Notes: generated by a model not told the origin, from the letters alone. Shown: positions 1 through 10,603, counted from the first letter of the stretch. The stretch: 64,000 bases of DNA from Candidatus Forterrea multitransposorum CG_2015-17_Forterrea_25_41 (GCA_009392915.1 CP045477.1:416001-480000), one strand, 5' to 3'. Numbers and translations are program-made.

Positions 1-140
1 GTTTTTTTACTAAATATATGTCTTAATAATCTACTCTTTCCAGAATTATTTCCACCTACAAAAATATTTAGTTTTGATAAACTATTAATAGTATCTGGAT
101 AACCTTCAAAATTTAATTTAATATTTTTAATTAATTCCAT
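1..140 (-). CDS. N-terminal fragment (approx 46 aa, truncated by window start) of an AAA_15/OLD-family-like ATPase. The ATG at 138-140 overlaps the hsdS stop codon.
   Basis: Reverse-strand translation MELIKNIKLNFEGYPDTINSLSKLNIFVGGNNSGKSRLL..., with a Walker A-like GGNNSGKS. The ATG overlaps the TAA of the upstream hsdS by 1 nt. Confidence 0.45.
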   Translation of the reverse strand, partial: MELIKNIKLNFEGYPDTINSLSKLNIFVGGNNSGKSRLLRHIFSKK

Positions 141-1432
141 TAATATTTCACCCTTATTTTTCCAGACATTAATTTAGGTAATAATAAATCTCTTATTTCA
201 GATAATTTCTTATTTTGCCTTTTATTTTCTGAAATTTTAATAAATGTACTTCTGATCATTGAATTATATTTTTTCAATATTTCATTTGATGGATTCAATA
301 TCTGTATTTTCTGAATGTTTTCATTATTAATTGCTTGCATTGTTGTACCATTACATAAGTTATTTTTTATTATTTCAAAATCATCATTTAATACAAAATT
401 CCAAATATAATACAAAGCATTTTCTTTTATGTCTAACCCAGCAAATCCAGTAGATAAAATTAAATTTTCTAATTCCCAAGCGCTATACTTATCAAAATAA
501 GTTATTTTTTTACTATTTTTCATTTTAGCAAACCACACTGTATTCTCTTTAGGTTGCATATTTGCTCTTGATGGTCTTTTTATAAATGTAATTTTAGTAT
601 TATAATTTATTATTTCAGAATTATCTATATCTGCAGTTGCAACATATGTTTTTTCATCAAAGTCTTCTGTACCAACCTTTGTAAAAGACGTTAGATTATT
701 GTCTCCTAAATGCCCAACATCCCATCCTTTAGGTATTTCTTTTTTTAATTCTTTATTATAAACCATTTCTCCTCCACTAGATTTATAAGGTTCTCCTTTT
801 TCATTTGGAAATTCAAAATCAACAAACCATCTTTTAAATAAAGTTTTTCCTATTTCTTCAAGTGTTTGATTCATTTTTCTGTTTAGTTCTATTTTTTCAT
901 CTAAATCAGAAAGGATTTTTGCAATTTTTAACATTTCATTATTATTTTTTGGAACTATAACTAGTAATTTTTTAATATCCCCTAAACTAAGTGTTTTTTG
1001 TGTAGAACCACCAACATTTTTTTCAATTTGATTTAAAATATATTTAGAATTTAAGGCATAATATAAAAAATAACTGTTTATATTCGGGTTAATTATCACC
1101 GTATTTTGCCCTAAACAAAATAATTCTGTTGTATTTACAAAACTTGTAATTCCATATGTTCCAACCCTAGTCATTATGATATCATTTTGCTTTGGGATAT
1201 AATTTTTAGTAAATTCATCATAAATAGATTTAGTAACTTTTAATGTATTTGATAAATCTAAACTACCTGATTTCACATCAGTTACTCTTACCATTGATAT
1301 TCCTTTATTAACATAAATTGGAGTTTTATGACAAGAATCAATAACTATAGATATATCATTTAATGATTTAACGTCCCAATCTTTAGGAATTAATCCAATT
1401 TCTGTTTTTTTAAATTTTATTTTATTAATCAT
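140..1432 (-). CDS. hsdS: Type I restriction-modification specificity subunit HsdS.
   Basis: 430 aa. Two target-recognition halves separated by a conserved central helix (KKLLVIVP...LDEKIELNRKMNQTLEEIGKTLFKRWFVDFEFP) and a C-terminal LLPKLMSGKIRV motif typical of HsdS. Sits in an operon with hsdM. Confidence 0.8.
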   Translation of the reverse strand: MINKIKFKKTEIGLIPKDWDVKSLNDISIVIDSCHKTPIYVNKGISMVRVTDVKSGSLDLSNTLKVTKSIYDEFTKNYIPKQNDIIMTRVGTYGITSFVNTTELFCLGQNTVIINPNINSYFLYYALNSKYILNQIEKNVGGSTQKTLSLGDIKKLLVIVPKNNNEMLKIAKILSDLDEKIELNRKMNQTLEEIGKTLFKRWFVDFEFPNEKGEPYKSSGGEMVYNKELKKEIPKGWDVGHLGDNNLTSFTKVGTEDFDEKTYVATADIDNSEIINYNTKITFIKRPSRANMQPKENTVWFAKMKNSKKITYFDKYSAWELENLILSTGFAGLDIKENALYYIWNFVLNDDFEIIKNNLCNGTTMQAINNENIQKIQILNPSNEILKKYNSMIRSTFIKISENKRQNKKLSEIRDLLLPKLMSGKIRVKY

Positions 1433-2400
1433 AATATTTCCAATTTATGTTCTGAATTAACAATTTCATAAAAATCATTAATATAAGTAATTATGTTTAA
1501 ATATATCGTATTATTTTTTACATCTGATACTTCTATGTGAGAAGTTATTTCAAAAATAGATCCTGTTCTTGTTTCTTCAGGAATATTAATATTCTCAGAA
1601 TACTCTAAAATTCTAAAATTTTTAATTTTAACTTTATCTTCTCCAATTTCAATTTGATTTAATTTAGACATATAATCATTAATATAACTTTTAAAATCAT
1701 ATGAATTGCTAAATTCCTCAATTGAATTAATAAAATTTTCTTCAGGATAAATATTATCTAATTTAATAAATAAACCATCACCTATCGGTTCTATAACTAT
1801 ATCTTTATTAAATAACTCTTTAAATTCTAATGCACAATTTTTATTAAATCCTAAATCCCTTGTAATTAAAAATACATTTTCATAATCATCAAAATCTTGA
1901 GATAATATTGTCTCCCATATCAAGGCATCTTTAAAACCAGAATCAGATTTTTTATCTTTATTAAAAGGAGACTTTTTTTCTAATGCTCTTATTTTTAGAT
2001 CATTAAATTTTTGAAAAATTAAATCATCAGAAATTTTTAAAATTTTTATTTTGTTTTCAAAAATATAATTTCCAATTTTATCCAAAATAAAATCTTTTAT
2101 ATTAAAATCATCTGAAATTTTAAATAAGTTAATTTTCGAATCAATATAAGCATATCTTTTTTTAATGTCACCTAATTTTCTGCTATCGGATTTAAAACAA
2201 TCTCTTCTTTGTTTTTCTAATTCAAATAAAGTTATATCTGTTATTGATAATTTAATATATTCAAACAAATTTTTTTTAAAAATATAATCATACAATTTTT
2301 TAAAATCATTATTAAATGTAAAAGTATGATAATAAATATTATCACTACTATTTTCTTTTAACACATTTGTATCAAAAATAATTATTGTTTTTGGCATCAT
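1429..2400 (-). CDS. PIN-like nuclease-domain protein (N-terminal approx 190 aa) with a C-terminal domain of unknown function.
   Basis: N-terminal IIIFDTNVL, plus downstream acidic residues including FLITRD (the hhTxD-type PIN motif). 4-nt overlap with both neighbouring genes. Confidence 0.45.
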   Translation of the reverse strand: MMPKTIIIFDTNVLKENSSDNIYYHTFTFNNDFKKLYDYIFKKNLFEYIKLSITDITLFELEKQRRDCFKSDSRKLGDIKKRYAYIDSKINLFKISDDFNIKDFILDKIGNYIFENKIKILKISDDLIFQKFNDLKIRALEKKSPFNKDKKSDSGFKDALIWETILSQDFDDYENVFLITRDLGFNKNCALEFKELFNKDIVIEPIGDGLFIKLDNIYPEENFINSIEEFSNSYDFKSYINDYMSKLNQIEIGEDKVKIKNFRILEYSENINIPEETRTGSIFEITSHIEVSDVKNNTIYLNIITYINDFYEIVNSEHKLEIL

Positions 2401-2879
2401 TTAAAATCAAATATTTTCTTTTTATTAGAATAATTAATTATTATTTTATATTTTAAATTGTTTTCTAAATTCATCTCTTTTTCAAAATTTTCTTTTGAAC
2501 TATAATTTAATTTAACTAATATTTTATCAGTGTGATTTGGTTGTAATAGAAATGGAAATATAACTGGTTTATATGATGGTAGAGGATAACTTGTTTTTAA
2601 ACCAACACCCAAACTTACAGATTCAGATACATTCAAATAAACTGAATTAGGCATAAATTTAGTTTTATTATGATATAATTCCATCTTCTTAATTGTAGTT
2701 GGTCTTTGACCAACATTACTTAAATAAAAATAAATCCAAATTTCATTTTCATCCATCTTAACTTCTAAAACTTCTTTTTCAACATATAATTTAGGTTTAT
2801 TTTTACTTTCTATATAAAAAGATAATAATATACCTAATATTGCAACTATTAAACCCAATATACTAATTATATATTCCAT
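2397..2879 (-). CDS. Small single-pass membrane protein with a beta-rich C-terminal domain, hypothetical.
   Basis: N-terminal hydrophobic helix ISILGLIVAILGILLSFYI. Overlapping start and stop with its neighbours. Confidence 0.4.
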   Translation of the reverse strand: MEYIISILGLIVAILGILLSFYIESKNKPKLYVEKEVLEVKMDENEIWIYFYLSNVGQRPTTIKKMELYHNKTKFMPNSVYLNVSESVSLGVGLKTSYPLPSYKPVIFPFLLQPNHTDKILVKLNYSSKENFEKEMNLENNLKYKIIINYSNKKKIFDFK

Positions 2880-3370
2880 TAGTTATCATTTTTCTTTTTA
2901 AACTTTCTAATTAATGCTAATAATAGTTCTTGTTTAAAAAATATTATACTTAGTAATTCTATACCAAAAGCAATATTTAAAACAACAGATAATTTAAAAT
3001 TATTAATTATTGTTTTGTAAATACTTATTTGACTATTTTCTATATTTTCAAATTTTTGATTTAAATTAGTTATTTGATACTGTATAATATTATAATCATT
3101 TTTTATTTCTTCAAAATCTTTTTTAGTTATATTTTCTGTTATTAATTTGTTATAGTCAGACTGACAATTTTTTAGTTGTGAACTAATCTGTATTATATTG
3201 TTATTTAATGTAATTTTATTTAATTCACAATTATTTAATTTATCTACAATAGGTTTACATTTATCCTCTGATAATAAACCAAACAATCCTTGTATAATTG
3301 GAATAAATATCATCACAATTATAAACACAACTAAAATACCTCCAATTATTGCAAATGGATTATCCGCCAT
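2879..3370 (-). CDS. Small membrane protein with two TM segments flanking a Cys-containing coiled-coil region, hypothetical.
   Basis: N-terminal TM helix (FAIIGGILVVFIIVMIFIPII), a Q/N/K-rich heptad-like middle region, and a C-terminal hydrophobic segment. Start lies 2 nt after the hsdM stop. Confidence 0.4.
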   Translation of the reverse strand: MADNPFAIIGGILVVFIIVMIFIPIIQGLFGLLSEDKCKPIVDKLNNCELNKITLNNNIIQISSQLKNCQSDYNKLITENITKKDFEEIKNDYNIIQYQITNLNQKFENIENSQISIYKTIINNFKLSVVLNIAFGIELLSIIFFKQELLLALIRKFKKKNDN

Positions 3371-3372
3371 AT

Positions 3373-4890
3373 CTATTTCACCTCAAAGCCGATTCCTTTA
3401 AGATTTTTCTTAATCTCTTCTTCTAATTTCTTAGATTCTTTAAATTGTTCGCTTAATTCTTTTGTAAGGCGAGTCATCTTTTCTTGAAAAACTTCAGGAT
3501 CTTCCTCTTCTTCCTTAAAACCAACGTAACGGCCAGGTGTAAGAATAAAGTCTTGCTTTTCAATCTCTTCAAGAGAGGCTGATTTACAAAAAGAAAGCTC
3601 ATCTTGATAACTTTTTTTGTTTATCGGGTCTTTTGACCTCCAAAGAGAAACAGTTTCTGAAATTTTTGTAAAATCTTCTTCAGTGAGTTCTCTTTGTCTT
3701 CTGTTAATCATTTGTCCAAGATTTCTAGCATCAATAAAAAGAGTTTCTCCTTTTCTATGTGCAGGTTTATTTCTATTAACAAACCAAAGACAAGCAGGAA
3801 TCATTGTATTATAAAATAATTGAGATGGAAGAGCAATAATACACTCTACAAGATCATCTTTAAGTATATTTTTTCTAATTTCTCCTTCTCCAGAAGTATT
3901 AGAACTTAAAGAACCGTTTGAAAGAACAAAACCAGCAATTCCTTTAGATCCTAAATGATAAATAAAATGTTGAACCCATGCAAAATTAGCGTTCCCTGCA
4001 GGAGGAACTCCATATTTCCAACGAGCATCCTCTCTTAATAGATCTCCAGACCAGTCTGAATCATTAAAAGGAGGATTTGCAATTATAAAATCAGCTCTTA
4101 AGTCTTTATGTTCATCATTTAGAAAACTACCTTCATTATTCCAAACAACTTTATTATCAATACCTCTTATTGCAAGATTCATTTTACATAATTTCCAAGT
4201 TGTTTGATTAGATTCTTGACCATAAATAGATATTTGACCTATTTTTCCACCATGTTTTTCAACAAACTCTTCAGATTGAACAAACATTCCTCCAGAACCA
4301 CAACAAGGGTCAAATATTCTTCCTTTAAAAGGTTGTATTATTTCAACTAATAATTTAACAATAGATTTAGGAGTATAGAATTGGCCTCCTTTTTTTCCTT
4401 CAGCAGAAGCAAATTGTCCTAAGAAATATTCATATACTCTTCCTAAGATATCTTTACTATTATCTTTAGAATTAAAAGAAATTGTTCCTATAAGATCAAT
4501 TAACGCTCCTAATTTTGTTTTATCTAAAGATGGTTTTGAATAATCTTTTGGAAGTATTCCTTTAAGTGTTGGATTTTCTTTTTCAATTAAATCCATTGAA
4601 TCATCAATAATTCTTCCAATTTCTATATTTTTTGCATTATCTTGAAGATATTCCCATCTTGCTTTTTTTGGAACATAAAATACTCTTTGAGAGACATATT
4701 CATCTTTATCTTCTGGGTCTGCATATTCTTCTTCTTTTAGTTTAGTATATAGTTCTTCAAAAGAATCAGATATATATTTTAAAAATATTAAACCTAAAAC
4801 TACATGTTTATATTCTGCAGCATCCATATTACTTCTTAATTTATCTGCTGCTTTCCAAAGCTTTTCTTCAAATCCTAAATCTTGAGTCAT
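3373..4890 (-). CDS. hsdM: Type I restriction-modification N6-adenine DNA methyltransferase subunit HsdM.
   Basis: 505 aa with an AdoMet motif ([10 protein letters not shown]) and the catalytic NPPF ([12 protein letters not shown]). N-terminal HsdM_N-like region present. Confidence 0.9.
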
Positions 4891-4960: not shown

Positions 4961-5347
4961 CTATTCAAATCTAATCTCTTTTCTATCATCTTCTATTGCT
5001 TGTTTTATTTTATTATATTCTTCTTCACTTAACTCTATTATATTACTATAAGTATAATCTTCCTTTGCAAGCTTAAATCTTTCTTGTAAAGAACGTGCAC
5101 CAAGACCTTTATTAGATAAAAGTAATAAAGAAAGTTTAATCTGATAAGGATATGGTTTTTTCCAAGAAGTAAATTCATTGTCTACTTTTTTAATAACTTT
5201 AAATATTCCAAAAATTACTCCTTGACCATAATATACAATAATATCATCTAAATTAACTAAATCTCTTTCATTTTTGTCTATAAAACCACAATATTCTTTT
5301 GTTTTAACAAAAGATTCCCAAGAATGGTTAATTAAGTAATATTTCAT
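4961..5347 (-). CDS. EVE-like (PUA-fold) domain protein.
   Basis: 128 aa. Pattern MKYYLINHSWESF ... DDIIVYYGQGVIFGIFKVIK ... PYQIKLSLL resembles the EVE consensus (YWLxK..P..F / GDLxFFYHS..IVGIAEV). Lies 70 bp upstream of hsdM on the same strand. Confidence 0.4.
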   Translation of the reverse strand: MKYYLINHSWESFVKTKEYCGFIDKNERDLVNLDDIIVYYGQGVIFGIFKVIKKVDNEFTSWKKPYPYQIKLSLLLLSNKGLGARSLQERFKLAKEDYTYSNIIELSEEEYNKIKQAIEDDRKEIRFE

Positions 5348-5349
5348 TT

Positions 5350-6729
5350 TTAATCATATCTAAATCCATATTTTTCAGTTAATTTTTGCCATTCATCATG
5401 ATATTTTTTCCATTCATTATATTCAAATTCATCTAATACCTGGCCAGAACCATAACTATCTAATTTATTTTGCAAAAATTTTAATCTCAAATTATCATCA
5501 TATTCTTCTTTAACACTTTCAAAAGATTTACCTTCAGAAACAACATAAATATTTGGCTTTGAAATTAATTTACCTACTCCAATATAATCTCCATCACTAT
5601 CTGTAATAATACTTGGAGTTGTTGTTTCTATAAAACAATAACCAGAATTATTATAAGAATATTTAATTGGGCATTTTAATCCTATTGAAGCATGCTGCTC
5701 TAATTCAAAACTAAAAATTGCAACACCATAACCTAACTCTTTTAACATTAATGCAAGTAAATTTGTTTTATCCCCACAAACTCCTGTTTGATCATATAAT
5801 GTTTCATAAGCATATCTATTACTATAATTATGATTAAAAGAATCCCAATCATAAGGCATTGTTTGAACTAAACTGATTGCAATCCTTGCTTGATCATCAG
5901 TATTATTTGTTATTTTTTTAATTTCATTAATTAATGGTAGAATATATCTTTCTTGATCTTCAGTATTAACATACATTAATGACATATATTCAGAAGTAGG
6001 AGGAGATTCATAAGAAGAATAAGTTACTGTTCGAGGTAAATTTGACAAATAATAATTAAACCCATTATAGACAGTGTAATTAAAACTATTAGGTACACCT
6101 CTTAGAGTATAATTTAACTTAATTGGCTTAGGTTCAGTTTGCAATTTATGTAAACACTTCCCATTAATATAAATTTCATCTATATCACATAAACATTTTT
6201 CAGGAAACTCAATTAAATTACCTTTCTGACAAAAATAAGGCTTAATATTTGAACAATTATTATATAAAGTACCATCTTCACACCTATTAATAACAAAATT
6301 AAATAATAAATTCATAATTATATAAATTAGAATAATAATAATAACAATATTTCTTAATTGTTTAAATCTAATTTTTTTAAGTAAATGAATAACTAAAGTT
6401 AAAATTAAACTATTTAGTAAAATTATTATAAAAAAGTTAAAACTAACCTTTAATAATAGATAATTAAAACTTAATAAAATAATAACATAAACTAAAGTCC
6501 ATATAAATAAATAAAAATTAAATCTAAATTTATTTTTATAAATTATAACAGTTATTATGCGTGAAAATAAACTAAATATGATTGCTATAAATACTAATTT
6601 AGTGGTATTATTAACAATATTTAATAAATTTAAAAATAAAGAAGATAAATAATATAATAGACTATAAATTAATATCCAAAATAGAAACCAGTAAGATTTA
6701 TAAAATCTAAAAATATTATTATTTCTCAT
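5350..6729 (-). CDS. Membrane-anchored protein with a Cys-rich ectodomain and a transglutaminase-like cysteine protease core.
   Basis: First ~140 aa are multi-TM, followed by a Cys-rich segment. The C-terminus carries GVCGDKTNLLALMLKELGYGVAIF...EQHASIGL...GYCFIETT, which resembles a transglutaminase-like C/H/D triad. Confidence 0.4.
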   Translation of the reverse strand: MRNNNIFRFYKSYWFLFWILIYSLLYYLSSLFLNLLNIVNNTTKLVFIAIIFSLFSRIITVIIYKNKFRFNFYLFIWTLVYVIILLSFNYLLLKVSFNFFIIILLNSLILTLVIHLLKKIRFKQLRNIVIIIILIYIIMNLLFNFVINRCEDGTLYNNCSNIKPYFCQKGNLIEFPEKCLCDIDEIYINGKCLHKLQTEPKPIKLNYTLRGVPNSFNYTVYNGFNYYLSNLPRTVTYSSYESPPTSEYMSLMYVNTEDQERYILPLINEIKKITNNTDDQARIAISLVQTMPYDWDSFNHNYSNRYAYETLYDQTGVCGDKTNLLALMLKELGYGVAIFSFELEQHASIGLKCPIKYSYNNSGYCFIETTTPSIITDSDGDYIGVGKLISKPNIYVVSEGKSFESVKEEYDDNLRLKFLQNKLDSYGSGQVLDEFEYNEWKKYHDEWQKLTEKYGFRYD

Positions 6730-6746
6730 TTTATCACATTAATATT

Positions 6747-7028
6747 TCAATGTCTTTTTTTAATTGATCTTTTAGAAATATTAGAACTTCTATATCTTAC
6801 AGGTTTACTTTTTCTATAAGAATCTTTTAAAACAGAATCACTTTCATTTTTTAAATCATGAATAGTTGGTTCTTTATAACCTAACTGCTTTAAAGCAGAA
6901 TCAAATATCTTTGTAAAGCTTAAGTTATTCTCTTGTACAAATCTTTCTTGACTTTTTGTAATTCTCATATTTATTCTTATATTTCTTCTTTCTGGAGAAG
7001 TATCTCTTTTTACATCTTCTATATTCAT
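6747..7028 (-). CDS. Small ribbon-helix-helix-like DNA-binding protein (start taken at the internal Met, MNIEDVKRD...).
   Basis: A beta-strand (IRINMRITKSQ) followed by two helices. Basic C-terminal tail. Confidence 0.3.
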   Translation of the reverse strand: MNIEDVKRDTSPERRNIRINMRITKSQERFVQENNLSFTKIFDSALKQLGYKEPTIHDLKNESDSVLKDSYRKSKPVRYRSSNISKRSIKKRH

Positions 7029-7164
7029 ATAAATCAATCCCTTAAATACACTTTTCCCAATCAAGAGCATAGTGTATATACAACTTTGACACAACGAGTT
7101 TATAAATAGATCGATTACACTAAAATATAATAAAAAGAGAAGATTAAAAAATAAATCTTATCTA

Positions 7165-7890
7165 CTAAACTTTAATCTCTATTAAAACAGGATTATGGTC
7201 ACTAAATCTTCTAATTTCATCATTTTCAAGAACTTTGCAAGAAATAATGTTTTTAAAAATAGGTTTATTCATAAAAAAGTAATCATTTTGCCACTTAACT
7301 TTACTTTTTTTATGTCTTAAGGTCTGTACAGGATATTCTTTATCAGTTAAATCAAAAGCATCAAAAAAATTAAAATCTTTTAATCTATCAAAAAAAATCT
7401 TATGAGAGTTATTATATTTATATATTAAATCAAATTGAATACTTGCATTTAAATCTCCCCCCAATATAATATTTCTTTTACCATTAAGTTTACCATAAAA
7501 CAAAGGAGATAAATCAGATAACATGCTATGTAGATTAGGAATTGAATAACCATCTGTCATAAGACCATATAATGATATAAAAGTAAGTTTTTTATTATTT
7601 ATAACAGTATTTGCTATTGTTAAAGATCCATTAAATTTAGTATTTATTGTTTCCTGAGAAAGATTGTATTTTTTACTATAAATTCCAGATCCCCAATTAC
7701 GATTTTTATCAATTTTATTCCAAATAAGATTTGAATCTTTTTTAATATGTTCAGGAGGATTTGATTCTTGAAATAAATATATATCTGCATCAATATTATT
7801 TAAAAAATAATCCCAAATATCTTTATTTAGCTTTTTATTTTTCCAATAATCCATATTCCAAGTAACTATTTTAATATTCATTCTTATCAA
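7165..7890 (-). CDS. Endonuclease/exonuclease/phosphatase (EEP) family protein.
   Basis: N-terminal KIVTWNMDYW (TWN motif) and C-terminal RFSDHNPV (SDH motif), both characteristic of the EEP fold. Confidence 0.7.
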   Translation of the reverse strand: MIRMNIKIVTWNMDYWKNKKLNKDIWDYFLNNIDADIYLFQESNPPEHIKKDSNLIWNKIDKNRNWGSGIYSKKYNLSQETINTKFNGSLTIANTVINNKKLTFISLYGLMTDGYSIPNLHSMLSDLSPLFYGKLNGKRNIILGGDLNASIQFDLIYKYNNSHKIFFDRLKDFNFFDAFDLTDKEYPVQTLRHKKSKVKWQNDYFFMNKPIFKNIISCKVLENDEIRRFSDHNPVLIEIKV

Positions 7891-7898
7891 TTTTTATT

Positions 7899-8738
7899 TT
7901 AAATAACCTTCTTAATATTCTTTTCCAAGTAAACAATAAACTTATCTTTATTCTTTCCTTTTAACTTTTCCCAAGAATTATATACTTTTCTTATTTTATC
8001 TTCTAAAATAATATCTTCTTTATCATTATATCTGTATCTTGCATATTTTTCTTTATTATAACCTAACTTATATGCTAAAATATTTTCAATAGTAGATGTA
8101 AAAGTTTCACTAAATGACTGCTTTTTTATTCCACCATATTTATCTAAAATATATTTTTCAATTCTATTATATATTTCATTATTTGAATTAATTACATGAA
8201 TAAGTTCATGAATTAATAAAATATATATTCTATTTTTAGTAAATTTTCTATAATCAACATCATCTCCTATAGATATATGAAAAGATAAATTTGTTGCAGA
8301 ACCTCCAAAACCAGGCCTTGTATTATTTGCAACAAAGAAAGTAGAGCTTACTTTTGTAGAATTATAAATAACATCTAAATAAGGTTTAATTATTTTAAGT
8401 TCTTTCTCTTTAAAATTAGTTATAAATGTATTTAGAAAATCTTCTGATTTTTTATTAATAACAATAGGAAATAATTTTTTTAAAACAATTAGATGTTTTT
8501 TTTCAATATTACTTAATTTTTTTTTATTAACAATATTATCTATTAAATTTTTGTAATTAAGCCTATTTGTAGAAATAATACTATAATCTTTATTAATCAA
8601 AAAAATTAAATCTACCATTTCTTTTAATTGATTTTTATTAGCAAAAGTATAAACTTTATCAATATTACAATATGCTTTACAAGCAAGTCTTAAATCTTTT
8701 GAAGGTTTTATTAAGTTTAGTTTAATATCAACACTCAT
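7899..8738 (-). CDS. Hypothetical protein with a HExxH motif (possible zincin-like).
   Basis: LLIHELIHV motif. Start lies 8 nt upstream of the EEP gene. Confidence 0.3.
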   Translation of the reverse strand: MSVDIKLNLIKPSKDLRLACKAYCNIDKVYTFANKNQLKEMVDLIFLINKDYSIISTNRLNYKNLIDNIVNKKKLSNIEKKHLIVLKKLFPIVINKKSEDFLNTFITNFKEKELKIIKPYLDVIYNSTKVSSTFFVANNTRPGFGGSATNLSFHISIGDDVDYRKFTKNRIYILLIHELIHVINSNNEIYNRIEKYILDKYGGIKKQSFSETFTSTIENILAYKLGYNKEKYARYRYNDKEDIILEDKIRKVYNSWEKLKGKNKDKFIVYLEKNIKKVI

Positions 8739-8805
8739 AAAGATATCTATTAAATAAAGGTTTTTTAAAAGTTATGTTTAATAAGGAGCTATCATAAACT
8801 AAAAA

Positions 8806-9147
8806 TTAAACATTTACCCAAATAACACAACCTTTCTTATGAACGTAAGGTTTTGGAGAAGAATATCTTTTGATATCAGACAATACCCAAGCATGAGGAT
8901 TATTATATTTTAAATCTAAAACATCTTCTTTCTTTATTTGATGCTTTTCTAAGTTTTTAAATAAAATATCTTTGTTAATTTTTATTGAATCTTTAATAGT
9001 ACATTCACCATATACTTTTTTGCTGCCACTCATAATAAGAGCAATTCTTTCACCAATCTTTGAAGTATTAAAGTTTCTTATCTCCCAAGTCTTTTTTCCT
9101 TCTAAGATTAAATTTAACCATTTTTCTTTAATTATAAGGCCTTTCAT
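8806..9147 (-). CDS. ASCH domain (PUA-like) protein.
   Basis: 113 aa. KEKWLNLILEGKKTWEIR ... GERIALIMSG ... GECTIKD matches the ASCH pattern (K..w...i.sG.KtvE.R...gd.i.l......vvg.a.i). Confidence 0.6.
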   Translation of the reverse strand: MKGLIIKEKWLNLILEGKKTWEIRNFNTSKIGERIALIMSGSKKVYGECTIKDSIKINKDILFKNLEKHQIKKEDVLDLKYNNPHAWVLSDIKRYSSPKPYVHKKGCVIWVNV

Positions 9148-9244
9148 AAAAGATATCTATATTTCAAAAGGCTTTTAAACTCTTTTATGTAGTAATTAAA
9201 CTATTTATTAAAAAACAAAAATATATCTTAATTAAGATGATAAA

Positions 9245-10603
9245 TTATTTATCAATAACTTTCCAATATCCTGCTTTGTCTGAACCTATTCTTTTTATCT
9301 TCTTTTGCTCTTTTAATATTTTTAAATATCTTTCAATAGTCTTTGTACTTAAATTAAATTCTGTTGCCATTTGAGCATAAGTAACTTTATTATTAGCTTT
9401 AATTAATTTTAATATTTTTACACCGACATTTACACCGACATTTACACCGACATTTACACCGACATTTACAGTGTCTTTTACAGGTGCATTTACACCGACA
9501 TTCATAGTAGATTCTATTATTTTTTGTCTTTTAAAAACAATACAAAACCAATCAGTATCTATATTAAACTTAACACTTGGAAAAAGTTTTTTTATTCTTT
9601 TAATACCAGAACCAATCTTTTCAATAAACTCTGTTCTTTGTAAACAACCTGCTAAAATAGGATTTCTTAATATACTTACTTTTCCAAAATCTTTTGGACT
9701 AAAAAGAAGTTTTCCTGGATTTAATATTTCAACTCTATCTTCATACACTTCTACCAATATTCTTCCTTGAACAAAATAATCTCTATGAATCATGGCATTT
9801 AGTACTGCTTCCCTTAAAGCAGCCTCTGGTATTTCAGGGGTTTCAACTCTTCTTAAATTAATAATATCAGCCCGTGTTTTTGTATTTCTTAGGATAAATA
9901 ACACAGCATTTTCAAAATTTGATAAAAAGTCAGATTCAAATACTTTTTTATCAAGCATAACAGCCTTAGTATCTCCTTGGTATAAAACACAACTAATATC
10001 TGCATTTAAAAAGAATTTAGTAATTCTTTTTGAAAATAATAATGCACAGGCATTATTTGGAATATCATTTGTTAAAAGATTTAAATTTTTTAAAATATGC
10101 TCTTTTGATAGAGTTGTTGAAAATTTTGCTTTTTTTCTATATTTAAGAAATTTAGTATTATCTATATCTTTAAAATTAAATGAAGAAGTTTGTTTTTCAA
10201 AAGAAATTTTATTTTCGTTTTGTAAAAAATCAATAATTTCATTTCTATCTAGCTTTTGAGAGTTAGCACCTTGCCTTACATAAAAAGAACCACCTACTAA
10301 ATATGGTTTATCTTTTCCTAAAGGAACATATATTATACCAATATTATCTATGATTTCAAAATTAACAACTAAAGAGGGATCTATGTTTCTTGCAATTGTT
10401 TGTACTTCAGAGGAAAATCTATTGTTTATAGAAATACCTTTTATTTCTCCTTTATCTGTAACTCCTAAAAGAATTTTACCTCCATCTGAGTTTGCAAAAG
10501 CACAAATTGATTTTCCAATTTCTTTATGGTTTAAACTTTCTTTAAACTCAAGAGTATATCCTTCTCCTGTTTTTATAAGATTAAGTAAGTTCTTTTTATC
10601 CAT
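9245..10603 (-). CDS. AlbA_2 (Schlafen-like, formerly divergent AAA) + HATPase_c_4 + C-terminal wHTH putative transcriptional regulator.
   Basis: N-terminal LLNLIKTGEGYTLEFKESL...ICAFANSDGGKILLGV, a mid EAVLNAMIHRDY motif, and a C-terminal wHTH (TIERYLKILKEQKKIKRIG). Confidence 0.7.
   Translation of the reverse strand: MDKKNLLNLIKTGEGYTLEFKESLNHKEIGKSICAFANSDGGKILLGVTDKGEIKGISINNRFSSEVQTIARNIDPSLVVNFEIIDNIGIIYVPLGKDKPYLVGGSFYVRQGANSQKLDRNEIIDFLQNENKISFEKQTSSFNFKDIDNTKFLKYRKKAKFSTTLSKEHILKNLNLLTNDIPNNACALLFSKRITKFFLNADISCVLYQGDTKAVMLDKKVFESDFLSNFENAVLFILRNTKTRADIINLRRVETPEIPEAALREAVLNAMIHRDYFVQGRILVEVYEDRVEILNPGKLLFSPKDFGKVSILRNPILAGCLQRTEFIEKIGSGIKRIKKLFPSVKFNIDTDWFCIVFKRQKIIESTMNVGVNAPVKDTVNVGVNVGVNVGVNVGVKILKLIKANNKVTYAQMATEFNLSTKTIERYLKILKEQKKIKRIGSDKAGYWKVIDK
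9421..9504. repeat. 12-bp tandem repeat (CACCGACATTTA): four perfect plus three degenerate copies, in frame inside the regulator CDS (encodes the (VNVG)n linker).
   Basis: Read directly in the sequence: caccgacattta x4, followed by cagtgtctttta, caggtgcattta and caccgacattca. Confidence 0.85.

Follow-up and report, generated by a model that had tools for sequence, protein, structure and literature searches.

Two genes for membrane proteins and one for a PIN-like protein separate hsdM from hsdS in a type I restriction-modification (R-M) operon of a tiny DPANN-type archaeon, raising the question whether the three form a single system and whether any of them depends on the Hsd proteins. That defense genes can be embedded in operons of this type is already established (PrrC, Ronin, TgvAB and the ‘guilt-by-embedding’ candidates). 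The initial annotation proposed an undescribed module at this locus. The concept of embedding is known, but the specific linkage of the PIN family to hsdM and the DPANN membrane proteins appear to be new.

Organization of the operon

In the window, the 64,000-nt stretch of DNA analyzed here, the initial annotation described six consecutive minus-strand genes with tight junctions, and all six open reading frames are present (Table 1). By ORF coordinates, the junctions from hsdM to the ATPase gene are +2, -1, -4, -4 and -1 nt, the last being a TAATG overlap that places the ATPase start at 140. No hsdR had been seen, which is correct for the window but not for the locus: on the source contig, a gene for a 1018-aa HsdR lies just past window position 1, overlapping the ATPase gene by 4 nt. 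The R-M system is therefore complete. The order on this contig is hsdM, TM163, TM160, PIN_12, hsdS, OLD ATPase/Toprim, hsdR and TM214, the last encoding a 214-aa transmembrane (TM) protein outside the window, and seven junctions in a row fall within -8 to +2 nt.

Table 1. Genes of the coupled block and the ORF upstream of it, in window coordinates
Feature	Position	Strand	Basis or remark
hsdM, type I R-M methyltransferase subunit, 505 aa	3373..4890	minus	first gene of the coupled block
TM163, two-TM cargo protein, 163 aa	2879..3370	minus	ORF and hydrophobic segments
TM160, one-TM cargo protein, 160 aa	2397..2879	minus	ORF and TM helix
PIN_12 (formerly DUF4935) nuclease-family protein, 323 aa	1429..2400	minus	Pfam PF16289
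hsdS, specificity subunit, 430 aa, two target-recognition domains (TRDs)	140..1432	minus	Pfam, PADLOC
OLD-family ABC-ATPase/putative Toprim nuclease, first 46 codons of 627 aa	1..140	minus	Walker A GGNNSGKS
128-aa ORF, 70 nt upstream of hsdM	4961..5347	minus	possible conserved leader gene; operon membership uncertain

Profile searches identify the core subunits. HsdM matches Pfam N6_Mtase (3.9e-111) and HsdM_N (1.1e-27) and PADLOC MTase_I (2e-217); its translation contains the NPPF motif, and its nearest solved structure is the type I M subunit 3khk (3.9e-140). HsdS matches Pfam Methylase_S (3.7e-17) and, over residues 17-429 in two stretches, PADLOC Specificity_I (4.9e-92). HsdR (L001:13173-16229) contains HSDR_N, ResIII, SWI2_SNF2 and T1RH-like_C and matches PADLOC REase_I with E=0. 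The type I R-M operon at this locus is intact: it encodes an N6-adenine methyltransferase bearing the HsdM N-domain, a two-TRD HsdS and an HsdR. The earlier reading of such an operon with tightly coupled embedded genes holds. For the 128-aa ORF, searches of Pfam and PADLOC gave no match; a counterpart with 74% identity immediately precedes hsdM in L056, an independent locus.

Tight junctions are frequent in this compact genome, with 10 of 45 same-strand neighbor pairs in the window (22%) at 4 nt or less. The longest run in the window is the hsd block, with four such junctions, five if the ATPase gene is included, or seven on the source contig; the chance of such a run is roughly 1e-3 to 2e-2. 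Assembly error does not account for this layout. The sequence collection indexes the HsdS protein in 90 blocks, and the 24 hsdS-bearing contigs examined fall into two arrangements (JGI and ENA; L001 and L002) that have the gene order in common. In L066, from a different metagenome, the proteins are 100% identical over the aligned parts.

Exchange of the embedded membrane proteins

TM163 has hydrophobic segments at 1-36 and 125-154, giving an N-terminal TM segment, a center of ~95 aa, a C-terminal TM segment and a basic tail of 6-9 K/R, from which the topology was inferred. Alignment reveals two invariant cysteines and an invariant NITKKD core in the center (ITENITKKDFEEIK in the window protein). 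The protein belongs to no Pfam, NCBIfam or PADLOC family. It is lineage-restricted, with five homologues among 5.8 billion clusters, and its relatives adjoin hsdM or hsdS with varying partners. TM160 consists of a TM helix (2-26, within a hydrophobic segment at 1-26) and an Ig-like domain, that is, a membrane-anchored beta-sandwich. It is likewise lineage-restricted and nearly always lies upstream of hsdS.

Do the three cargo genes constitute one conserved module, as first proposed, in which a membrane sensor pair would act with a nuclease effector? They are contiguous and coupled at -1 and -4 nt, and L066 has the same triad, with 100% protein identity. The window, L067 and L059 represent three lineages in which PIN_12 follows TM160, and a TM163-like/TM160-like pair recurs in L061/L062. 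The full triad, however, is confined to the window lineage. In the close relative L067 (hsdM fragment 94%, PIN 86% and TM160 92% identical), TM163 is replaced by a 93-aa TM ORF and a 63-aa ORF. Other loci carry members with different partners or alone: L003 has PIN_12 beside an unrelated 379-aa TM protein, L056 and L072 have TM160 without PIN_12, and TM163 occurs in L063 and L064, which lack both TM160 and PIN_12. In about 40 hsd operons of bacteria and archaea, PIN_12 is accompanied by neither TM protein. This comparison of gene content largely refutes a three-component system, which we regard as very improbable.

The same slots in related operons are filled by Shedu SduA (7e-71, L059), DUF3800, other membrane proteins and orphan genes; in L001 and L063, OLD-type ATPases occupy them. 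Among the loci compared, every cargo gene outside the TM163, TM160 and PIN_12 families is a singleton. From this architecture and modularity, hsdM, hsdS and hsdR very probably form a chassis whose M-S and S-R junctions exchange unrelated accessory defense genes, even between close relatives. The slot-wise exchange indicates that the three cargo genes are separate cassettes rather than one system; each is associated with hsd operons independently of the others, and they recombine freely.

Structure and genomic context of the PIN_12 protein

The 323-aa protein matches PIN_12 (PF16289) over the whole 172-position model with 44.3 bits (3.3e-11; Pfam gathering cut-off 32 bits), and its relatives score 65-100 bits. 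It comprises an N-terminal VapC-like PIN domain with the PIN (Rossmann-like) fold and a C-terminal alpha+beta (cystatin/NTF2-like) domain, which is poorly conserved beyond close relatives. The acidic tetrad D10, E60, D158 and D182 is intact; the first three residues are kept in 47/47 relatives and D182 in 45/47. Judged by these residues, the protein is predicted to be a PIN nuclease with an intact active site, in agreement with its original PIN-like assignment.

As had been suspected, the cargo falls outside the named defense systems: PADLOC-DB v2.0.0 contains no model for PIN_12, TM163 or TM160, and none of the three proteins has a PADLOC match. Profile searches assigned no cargo protein to a housekeeping family. 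The terms DUF4935, PF16289 and PIN_12 do not occur in the supplements of the embedding study (10.1101/2024.01.29.577857). The only analysis of PIN_12/DUF4935 found in the literature is that of Matelska et al. 2017, who described DUF4935 as mostly monocistronic (PMC5499597).

Relatives in reference genomes were retrieved with a motif from the PIN protein only (n=44). The census is therefore unbiased by gene context, and it samples the FKDA(L/V)(I/L)WE subfamily of PIN_12. Of the 44, 36 (82%) are embedded in type I hsd operons and share their strand. In 25, the PIN_12 ATG overlaps the 3′ end of hsdM by 8-17 nt. One of the other embedded genes follows after a 7-nt gap and four after intervening ORFs; the order is M-S-PIN-R in four loci and M-S-R-PIN in two. 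All three IMG/VR relatives are arranged hsdM-PIN-hsdS, and the metagenomic relatives L003, L008, L009, L059 and L067 likewise have PIN_12 in an hsd context. The neighboring hsdM genes are 51-68% identical across phyla. Upstream of PIN_12 lies TM160 or hsdM, not an antitoxin gene, with the start inside hsdM in the 25 genomes above, and no vapB-like ORF was found in the inspected loci where PIN_12 directly abuts hsdM.

The remaining eight relatives lie outside hsd operons, and three of these adjoin McrBC, a DNA methyltransferase with GmrSD, or HNH helicases. Hsd proteins are therefore not indispensable to the family, which can act without them or alongside different restriction systems. Overall, the cargo occurs in R-M or defense settings, in line with the initial reading.

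Where PIN_12 follows hsdR (L012, L023), the protein carries an HsdR-like C-terminal tail. The L012 tail matches Pfam T1RH-like_C (3.5e-8, 33.6 bits; cut-off 26.8) and residues 967-1000 of its own HsdR (BLASTP 7e-6). The L023 tail is weaker, with a BLASTP match of 2e-4 to the L012 HsdR only and no match to T1RH-like_C in Pfam. The tail thus exceeds the Pfam threshold in one locus, L012.

The OLD-like ATPase

The full-length ATPase (627 aa, L001:11293-13176) is encoded between hsdS and hsdR. It matches AAA_15 (4.5e-17) and AAA_21 (5.3e-16) in Pfam, which bears out its OLD-like assignment. The translation contains the ABC ATPase motifs of a class 1 OLD protein: GGNNSGKS (Walker A), LIFIEEPE (Walker B) and TTHS. 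At the C-terminus, OLD-like_TOPRIM is matched below its gathering cut-off (E=0.0064, 17.4 bits against 23.2), and the Toprim motifs WVEG and ADNDG would supply the catalytic E and DxD. The alignment to its best solved relative in the PDB, the class 1 OLD nuclease 6p74 (1.3e-5), reaches the start of the Toprim domain. The protein resembles class 1 OLD/GajA-type nucleases, with an N-terminal AAA_15/AAA_21 ABC ATPase and a putative C-terminal Toprim domain.

The best PADLOC matches are NsnB (2.2e-18), AriA and GajA, at about 1e-17 to 1e-18. Unlike GajA of Gabija, this ATPase has a Pfam Toprim match below threshold and its gene is flanked by hsdS and hsdR; no UvrD-like GajB gene was called in the operon, so the ATPase is not part of Gabija. 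Menshen is excluded as well, as the locus contains no NsnA DUF262 gene (PMC12065111).

Comparison with known systems

A close analogy is PrrC/EcoprrI, in which a latent nuclease gene also lies nearly always within the hsd operon and has no separate antitoxin (PMC2610378; 10.1101/2024.01.29.577857). The proposed logic would be similar too, with an R-M protein as the silencer and a phage anti-restriction factor as the trigger. PrrC combines an ABC-ATPase with an anticodon-nuclease (ACNase) domain in one chain and is encoded between hsdS and hsdR, whereas the PIN_12 protein combines its PIN domain with a cystatin/NTF2-like domain, has no ATPase and is usually encoded directly behind hsdM. With neither the ATPase/ACNase fusion nor any relationship in sequence or fold, it is not a PrrC.

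Ronin offers a precedent for TM effectors under Hsd control, as its small membrane protein is genetically linked to hsdM/hsdS. RonA has 61 aa and one TM segment, and Ronin loci are typically without hsdR. The operon described here includes hsdR, and its TM proteins have 160-214 aa with folded extra-membrane domains. Compared with RonA by description, they form families of their own and do not belong to Ronin.

Same-orientation genes between type I R-M subunits also characterize the HEC/PDC candidates, TgvAB and BrxU (PMC11411939; 10.1101/2024.01.29.577857), and known defense genes (Shedu, OLD-type ATPases) occupy the slots described here. PIN_12 is embedded at a PrrC-like frequency rather than occasionally. 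Compared with VapC toxins, the PIN_12 protein is twice the size, carries helical insertions as well as an additional C-terminal domain, and is partnered by hsdM instead of an antitoxin gene. With no VapB-type antitoxin gene adjacent upstream, it is not a VapBC member.

Possible roles of the embedded nuclease

By analogy with PrrC and Ronin, we tentatively suggest, with a probability of roughly 40%, that PIN_12 is a nuclease kept latent under the control of the Hsd methylase subunits. PIN_12 would be made together with HsdM and HsdS, dock on the M2S methyltransferase core and be held latent there. A virus that disables or titrates the R-M complex, through DNA mimics or anti-restriction peptides, would release or activate PIN_12, and the freed protein would cut RNA, like VapC, or nucleic acid generally, as back-up or abortive immunity. 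The same logic links PrrC to EcoprrI and RonA to HsdMS: PrrC is kept silent by the type I enzyme to which it is linked (PMC2610378) and is almost exclusively embedded in type I R-M (10.1101/2024.01.29.577857), and RonA, a TM protein toxic alone, is held in check by HsdMS and set off by Ocr/ArdA (10.1101/2023.04.06.535777). TM163, TM160 and TM214 are lineage-specific additions and may be either RonA-like membrane effectors or anchors that keep cytoplasmic partners at the membrane, and the OLD nuclease may provide a further independent layer. Counting against control by the Hsd core are the eight non-hsd loci, the tail seen above threshold in one locus, the variable C-terminal domain, the subfamily-only motif, the mostly monocistronic DUF4935 genes of Matelska et al. 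2017 (PMC5499597) and the commonness of gene overlaps. We also know of no anti-restriction proteins in DPANN viruses.

Somewhat unlikely, in our estimate, is a hitch-hiking model, in which PIN_12, the OLD nuclease and the TM proteins are autonomous defense genes that exploit the hsd operon only as a site of co-regulated expression and depend on Hsd neither physically nor functionally (compare TgvAB, BrxU and Septu-in-Hma). Autonomous systems do enter these slots (SduA, OLD-type ATPases), the cargo is very diverse and mostly singleton, and 8/44 relatives live elsewhere; most embedded genes act independently (Payne et al. 2024, 10.1101/2024.01.29.577857), and TgvAB is functional without HsdR (PMC11411939). 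But 82% embedding, with the start inside hsdM in 25/44 across phyla, is PrrC-like and far tighter than typical; Septu, for example, is embedded in 0.7% of cases (Payne 2024, 10.1101/2024.01.29.577857). The HsdR-like tail in L012 argues for a shared binding partner, and a PIN toxin without an antitoxin needs some silencer.

It is quite unlikely that PIN_12 is an accessory restriction subunit, processing or degrading DNA after HsdR translocation and cleavage or boosting target binding, as PcrIIC1 does for Cas9, with the TM proteins holding the complex at the membrane, at the entry point of foreign DNA. Most type I systems function without such a subunit, nearly all bacterial PIN_12 loci lack the TM proteins, and PIN_12 also adjoins McrBC and other methyltransferases. 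Moreover, the VapC-like PINs characterized so far are mainly RNases. Least credible is a role in addiction, in which the PIN_12 toxin would stabilize the hsd cassette by post-segregational killing, or a housekeeping or regulatory function of the cargo. PIN toxins commonly act in addiction, the hsdM identities across phyla suggest that the cassette has spread horizontally, and R-M cassettes behave as selfish elements (PMC5499597). Against this stand the missing antitoxin gene, the lack of any housekeeping match and the restriction genes that again adjoin PIN_12 at non-hsd loci (named for 3/8).

Of the cassettes, PIN_12 is the one most likely to be functionally tied to the operon; it is coupled translationally to hsdM across Bacillota and archaea. 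In dozens of bacteria and archaea its gene comes immediately after that for the methylase, an arrangement suggestive of a widespread accessory weapon linked to restriction enzymes.

A complete type I operon

The six minus-strand genes lie where the initial annotation had placed them, as seen in an ORF check of the window, and Pfam profiles uphold its hsdM, hsdS and PIN assignments. The PIN gene belongs to the PIN_12 family, formerly DUF4935. Junctions within the window are +2, -1, -4, -4 and -1 nt. Tight spacing is frequent in this host genome (10 of 45 same-strand gene pairs in the window are no more than 4 nt apart); the operon is the window's longest run of tight junctions, and on the source contig seven junctions follow one another. 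The hsdR gene, not visible in the window, is present on the source contig beyond the window edge, so that no R-M subunit is lacking. The source contig (L001, JGI, 663 kb) was recovered by searching for the exact hsdS protein, as was another assembly (L002, ENA), in which the gene order is identical.

The ATPase had been labeled OLD-like. Its Walker A, Walker B and signature motifs, a C-terminal half that resembles Toprim and contains WVEG and ADNDG, and its best solved relative, the class 1 OLD nuclease 6p74, make this label reasonable on sequence grounds; it is unproven because the Pfam Toprim match (0.0064) is sub-threshold. Candidate roles as a Menshen or a Gabija component were rejected, as the partners NsnA and GajB, respectively, are lacking.

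Upstream of hsdM lies a 128-aa ORF, with a counterpart of 74% identity directly upstream of hsdM in an independent locus; it may serve hsd operons of this clade as a conserved leader or regulator. The operon stands at the end of a defense-island-like stretch (window 5350-10603, minus strand).

Features of the operon, its neighborhood and homologous loci
Feature	Position	Strand	Observation
ATPase gene, 5' part	window, ATG at 140	-	leaves window after 46 codons; GGNNSGKS; TAATG overlap with hsdS stop
hsdS	window 140-1432	-	Pfam Methylase_S
PIN_12 gene (323 aa)	window 1429-2400	-	Pfam PIN_12/PF16289 3.3e-11, above gathering cut-off
TM160 (160 aa)	window 2397-2879	-	no Pfam, NCBIfam or PADLOC family
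TM163 (163 aa)	window 2879-3370	-	no Pfam, NCBIfam or PADLOC family
hsdM	window 3373-4890	-	Pfam N6_Mtase 3.9e-111, HsdM_N
128-aa ORF	window 4961-5347	-	70 nt upstream of hsdM; no family match
459-aa multi-TM protein	window 5350-6729	-	weak transglutaminase-core match
EEP-family nuclease/phosphatase	window 7165-7890	-	
279-aa orphan	window 7899-8738	-	
ASCH-domain protein	window 8806-9147	-	matches PADLOC PDC-M11B
452-aa Schlafen/AlbA_2 + HATPase_c_4 + wHTH protein	window 9245-10603	-	matches N-terminal part of PADLOC pAgo model
AAA_15/AAA_21 ATPase, whole	L001, directly downstream of hsdS		627 aa
hsdR	L001, after ATPase, 4-nt overlap		1018 aa; HSDR_N, ResIII, SWI2_SNF2, T1RH-like_C; PADLOC REase_I E=0
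TM214 (214 aa)	L001:16222-16866, just beyond window position 1		8-nt overlap with hsdR stop; N-terminal TM helix
128-aa ORF counterpart	L056:4613-4999		
Shedu SduA	L059:263-1666		PADLOC 7e-71; Pfam SduA_C 8.5e-31
422-aa orphan	L003:5050-6318		hsdS-hsdR slot
292-aa orphan	L056:9651-10529		hsdS-hsdR slot
407-aa orphan	L059:4325-5548		hsdS-hsdR slot
706-aa orphan	L061:4199-6319		hsdS-hsdR slot
93-aa multi-TM ORF + 63-aa ORF	L067:575-1050		in place of TM163
TM160-family member, distant	L065:3919-4395		stand-alone
PIN_12 proteins after hsdR	L012:7998-9518, L023:7989-9428		480-506 aa; tail preceded by acidic linker
89-aa ORF + 136-aa ORF	L024:7307-7983		between hsdM and PIN_12; N-terminal TM in 89-aa ORF; bacterial
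99-aa ORF	L022:7582-7881		between hsdM and PIN_12; bacterial

Exchange of cassettes in two slots

TM163, TM160 and PIN_12 had been proposed as a single module. Gene-order comparison of relatives shows that they are not a conserved unit: each cargo gene is R-M-linked, but the full triad is confined to the window lineage. Homologues are rare; among 5.8 billion clusters, TM163 has 5, and TM160 and PIN_12 have 6 each. In related loci hsdM is 73-94% identical to that of the window, where measured, and each interior gene outside the three families occurs just once in the set of fetched loci.

Gene order at related loci
Locus	Order
L003	hsdM - 379-aa TM protein - PIN_12 - hsdS - 422 aa - hsdR
L056	hsdM - DUF3800 - 219 aa - TM160 homologue - hsdS - 292 aa - hsdR
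L059	hsdM - Shedu SduA - TM160 homologue - PIN_12 - hsdS - 407 aa - hsdR
L061/L062	hsdM - TM163-like - TM160 homologue - 267 aa - hsdS - 706 aa - hsdR
L063	hsdM - TM163 homologue - AAA_15 ATPase
L064	hsdR - 58 aa - hsdS - TM163 homologue
L067	hsdM - 93-aa multi-TM ORF - 63-aa ORF - TM160 - PIN_12 - hsdS
L072	... - 130 aa - TM160 homologue - hsdS

L067 is nearly identical to the window operon (hsdM fragment 94%, TM160 92%, PIN 86%) except for the two ORFs that replace TM163. This looks like a recent cassette replacement that retained a membrane protein in the slot directly behind hsdM, and such direct evidence of slot-wise replacement between near-identical operons looks new. Overall, the hsd genes form a conserved chassis around two exchange sites, the M-S and S-R slots. 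The cassettes in them shuffle independently of one another and include a validated defense gene, Shedu.

The SduA gene occupies the M-S slot of a Candidatus Ainarchaeum MAG. The 379-aa protein of L003 was considered as a TM163-TM160 fusion and rejected, BLASTP similarity being absent. The window operon carries the OLD-like nuclease in the S-R slot, where its DPANN relatives have orphans; these four proteins are mutually unrelated and match no Pfam or PADLOC family.

PIN_12 is joined to hsdM across domains

Relatives of PIN_12 were sought in one genome per GTDB species with the motif FKDA[LV][IL]WE; since this motif is taken from the PIN domain alone, the scan is blind to gene context, and it samples one motif-defined clade. 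The window's Hsd proteins served as tblastn queries for annotating the neighboring genes, and start codons were then refined. Within this clade, 36 of the 44 confirmed relatives lie in a type I hsd operon on the same strand. The ATG of PIN_12 overlaps the final 8-17 nt of hsdM at 25 loci and follows hsdM by 7 nt at one; other ORFs separate the two genes at four, and the order is hsdM-hsdS-PIN-hsdR at four and hsdM-hsdS-hsdR-PIN at two. The hosts are bacteria (Clostridia, Bacilli, Negativicutes, Haloplasma, Mollicutes and one actinobacterium) and archaea (Bathyarchaeota, Methanimicrococcus and one uncultured archaeon), and the hsdM-PIN junction is conserved across phyla. All three IMG/VR relatives have the order hsdM-PIN-hsdS; a tblastn search of plasmid and phage collections with the PIN protein gave no match. 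Several of the eight loci outside hsd operons are still amid restriction genes: PIN_12 lies behind McrB-McrC-SF1 helicase (L043) or SNF2-HNH helicase (L054), or overlaps an N6_N4 DNA methylase gene adjoining GmrSD (L029).

Ten representatives all score 65-100 bits against the PIN_12 profile, and none matches a PADLOC v2.0.0 (2023) model. The PIN-superfamily classification lists DUF4935 as "function unknown" and "usually mono-cistrons", and mentions proximity to type I subunits only generically, for some PIN nucleases (PMC5499597). In the searchable literature DUF4935 occurs in two papers, of which this one alone analyzes it, and we found no mention of PIN_12/DUF4935 in the text or supplements of the "guilt-by-embedding" study of type I, BREX and DISARM systems. 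Tight cross-domain linkage to hsdM, for an orphan Pfam family lacking a PADLOC v2 model, looks new.

In many Bacillota loci, one Mollicutes locus and the Methanimicrococcus locus, the stretch between PIN_12 and hsdR also holds additional, partly inverted copies of hsdS, at about +1 to +4 kb downstream of PIN (L026, L027, L037, L038, L041, L048, L049 and L050), which suggests phase-variable (shufflon-type) specificity genes. The 99-aa ORF of L022 resembles, by eye, a minimal nucleotidyltransferase.

Active site and HsdR-like tail

The active site of PIN_12 is intact: D10, E60 and D158 are invariant among 47 aligned relatives, and D182 is present in 45. This conservation of acidic residues indicates selection on the family to remain an active metal-dependent nuclease.

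Where PIN_12 lies behind hsdR, in Gottfriedia (L012) and Psychrobacillus (L023), the protein is extended by a C-terminal tail behind an acidic linker. The linker of L012 is an EEVEEAEE repeat, and its tail matches T1RH-like_C, the HsdR C-terminal domain, over the last ~60 positions (3.5e-8, 33.6 bits, above the Pfam threshold) and aligns with residues 967-1000 of the HsdR of the same locus (7e-6). The L023 tail has a weaker BLASTP match to the L012 HsdR (2e-4) and no match to Pfam T1RH-like_C. If the C-terminal region of HsdR helps this subunit to join the methyltransferase core, the tail would suggest docking of PIN_12 on that partner as well. This HsdR-tail variant looks new. The PADLOC model of this tail, PDC-S15, also matches the HsdR of the window operon.

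Orphan membrane proteins

No significant family was found for TM163, TM160, TM214 or the 128-aa protein in PADLOC, NCBIfam and Pfam scans; weak coiled-coil-type matches (DUF1664, JetC, EAD11) were set aside as compositional noise. Hydropathy places TM segments at both ends of TM163. Its strongly basic C-tail and the ~95-aa region between the TMs suggest an N-in/C-in hairpin with an external loop; in the alignment, two cysteines and the NITKKD core of this region are invariant. TM160 has a single N-terminal TM, followed in a confident structure model by an Ig-like beta-sandwich (pLDDT 84), for which a fold search returned no specific structural relative. K/R residues are clustered immediately behind the TM, suggesting that the soluble domain is cytoplasmic.

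TM214, the third membrane protein of the operon, is N-terminally anchored like TM160 and appears beta-rich from sequence alone; it was rejected as a TM160 paralogue (hhalign probability 0.5%). A viral scan for TM163 found no locus, a metagenome scan for TM160 found just three, all already known, and TM160 has 15 representatives among 1.84 billion proteins. TM163, TM160 and TM214 look like new, DPANN-restricted families with the hsd operon as sole consistent genomic partner. The only TM160 relative found outside an hsd operon (L065) adjoins NTP_transf_2 and DUF2779 genes, with a 914-aa MmeI-like type IIG R-M gene ~3 kb away.

Discussion

Type I R-M is one of the commonest prokaryotic defenses, and anti-restriction proteins are routine equipment of phages and plasmids. 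To our knowledge, an Hsd complex that doubles as a toxin-unleashing sensor has been studied experimentally only in PrrC and Ronin. PrrC is kept silent by the type I enzyme to which it is linked, and a phage anti-restriction peptide activates it (PMC2610378). The Ronin system contains a TM protein linked to hsdS/hsdM; this protein is toxic by itself, HsdMS suppresses it, and Ocr/ArdA act as the trigger (10.1101/2023.04.06.535777). With these two, TgvAB (PMC11411939) and the HEC/PDC candidates, accessory defense genes inside type I operons are already known.

Borrowing from PrrC and Ronin, we suggest that PIN_12 is co-produced with HsdM and HsdS, binds the M2S core and would be latent there. Anti-restriction factors that disturb the R-M complex would release or activate PIN_12, which would then cleave RNA or other nucleic acid and confer abortive or back-up immunity. 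We give this reading, by analogy, a probability of roughly 0.4. For the membrane proteins, a role as RonA-like effectors and a role as anchors fit the data equally well.

The cargo could instead consist of autonomous defense genes that hitch-hike in the operon, a somewhat less probable explanation, favored by the Shedu cassette and the diversity of the cargo and opposed by the recurrent hsdM-PIN_12 overlap. That PIN_12 is an accessory nuclease, or the membrane proteins a tether, in restriction itself seems improbable. A single-triad system, as first proposed, has the unbroken gene order of the window in its favor and the scattered cargo of the relatives against it, and is very unlikely. Least probable is an addiction or non-defense role; an antitoxin is absent.

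More tentatively than for the latent nuclease itself, PIN_12 nucleases might form a large, previously unrecognized class of guard effectors for R-M systems. Synthesized in concert with HsdM, they would stay inactive on HsdM2S (in some lineages via the borrowed HsdR tail) until viral anti-restriction attack fires them; the DPANN version would be wired to TM163, TM160 and TM214 as a second, membrane-directed arm. The PIN_12 idea lends itself to direct tests, since cultivable members of Streptococcus, Clostridium, Psychrobacillus, Gottfriedia and Methanimicrococcus carry homologues.

The immune repertoire of DPANN archaea is poorly known. This locus displays a fast-evolving cassette-exchange site within an hsd operon, and reveals three orphan membrane-protein families tied to R-M. 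A guard role would supply a function for DUF4935/PIN_12, and widespread layered immunity would follow from a conserved nuclease family with an intact active site that is wired to hsdM across dozens of genera. If true, anti-anti-restriction immunity of the PrrC and Ronin type would be common in type I systems, from gut Bacillota, streptococci and clostridia to methanogens and DPANN archaea.
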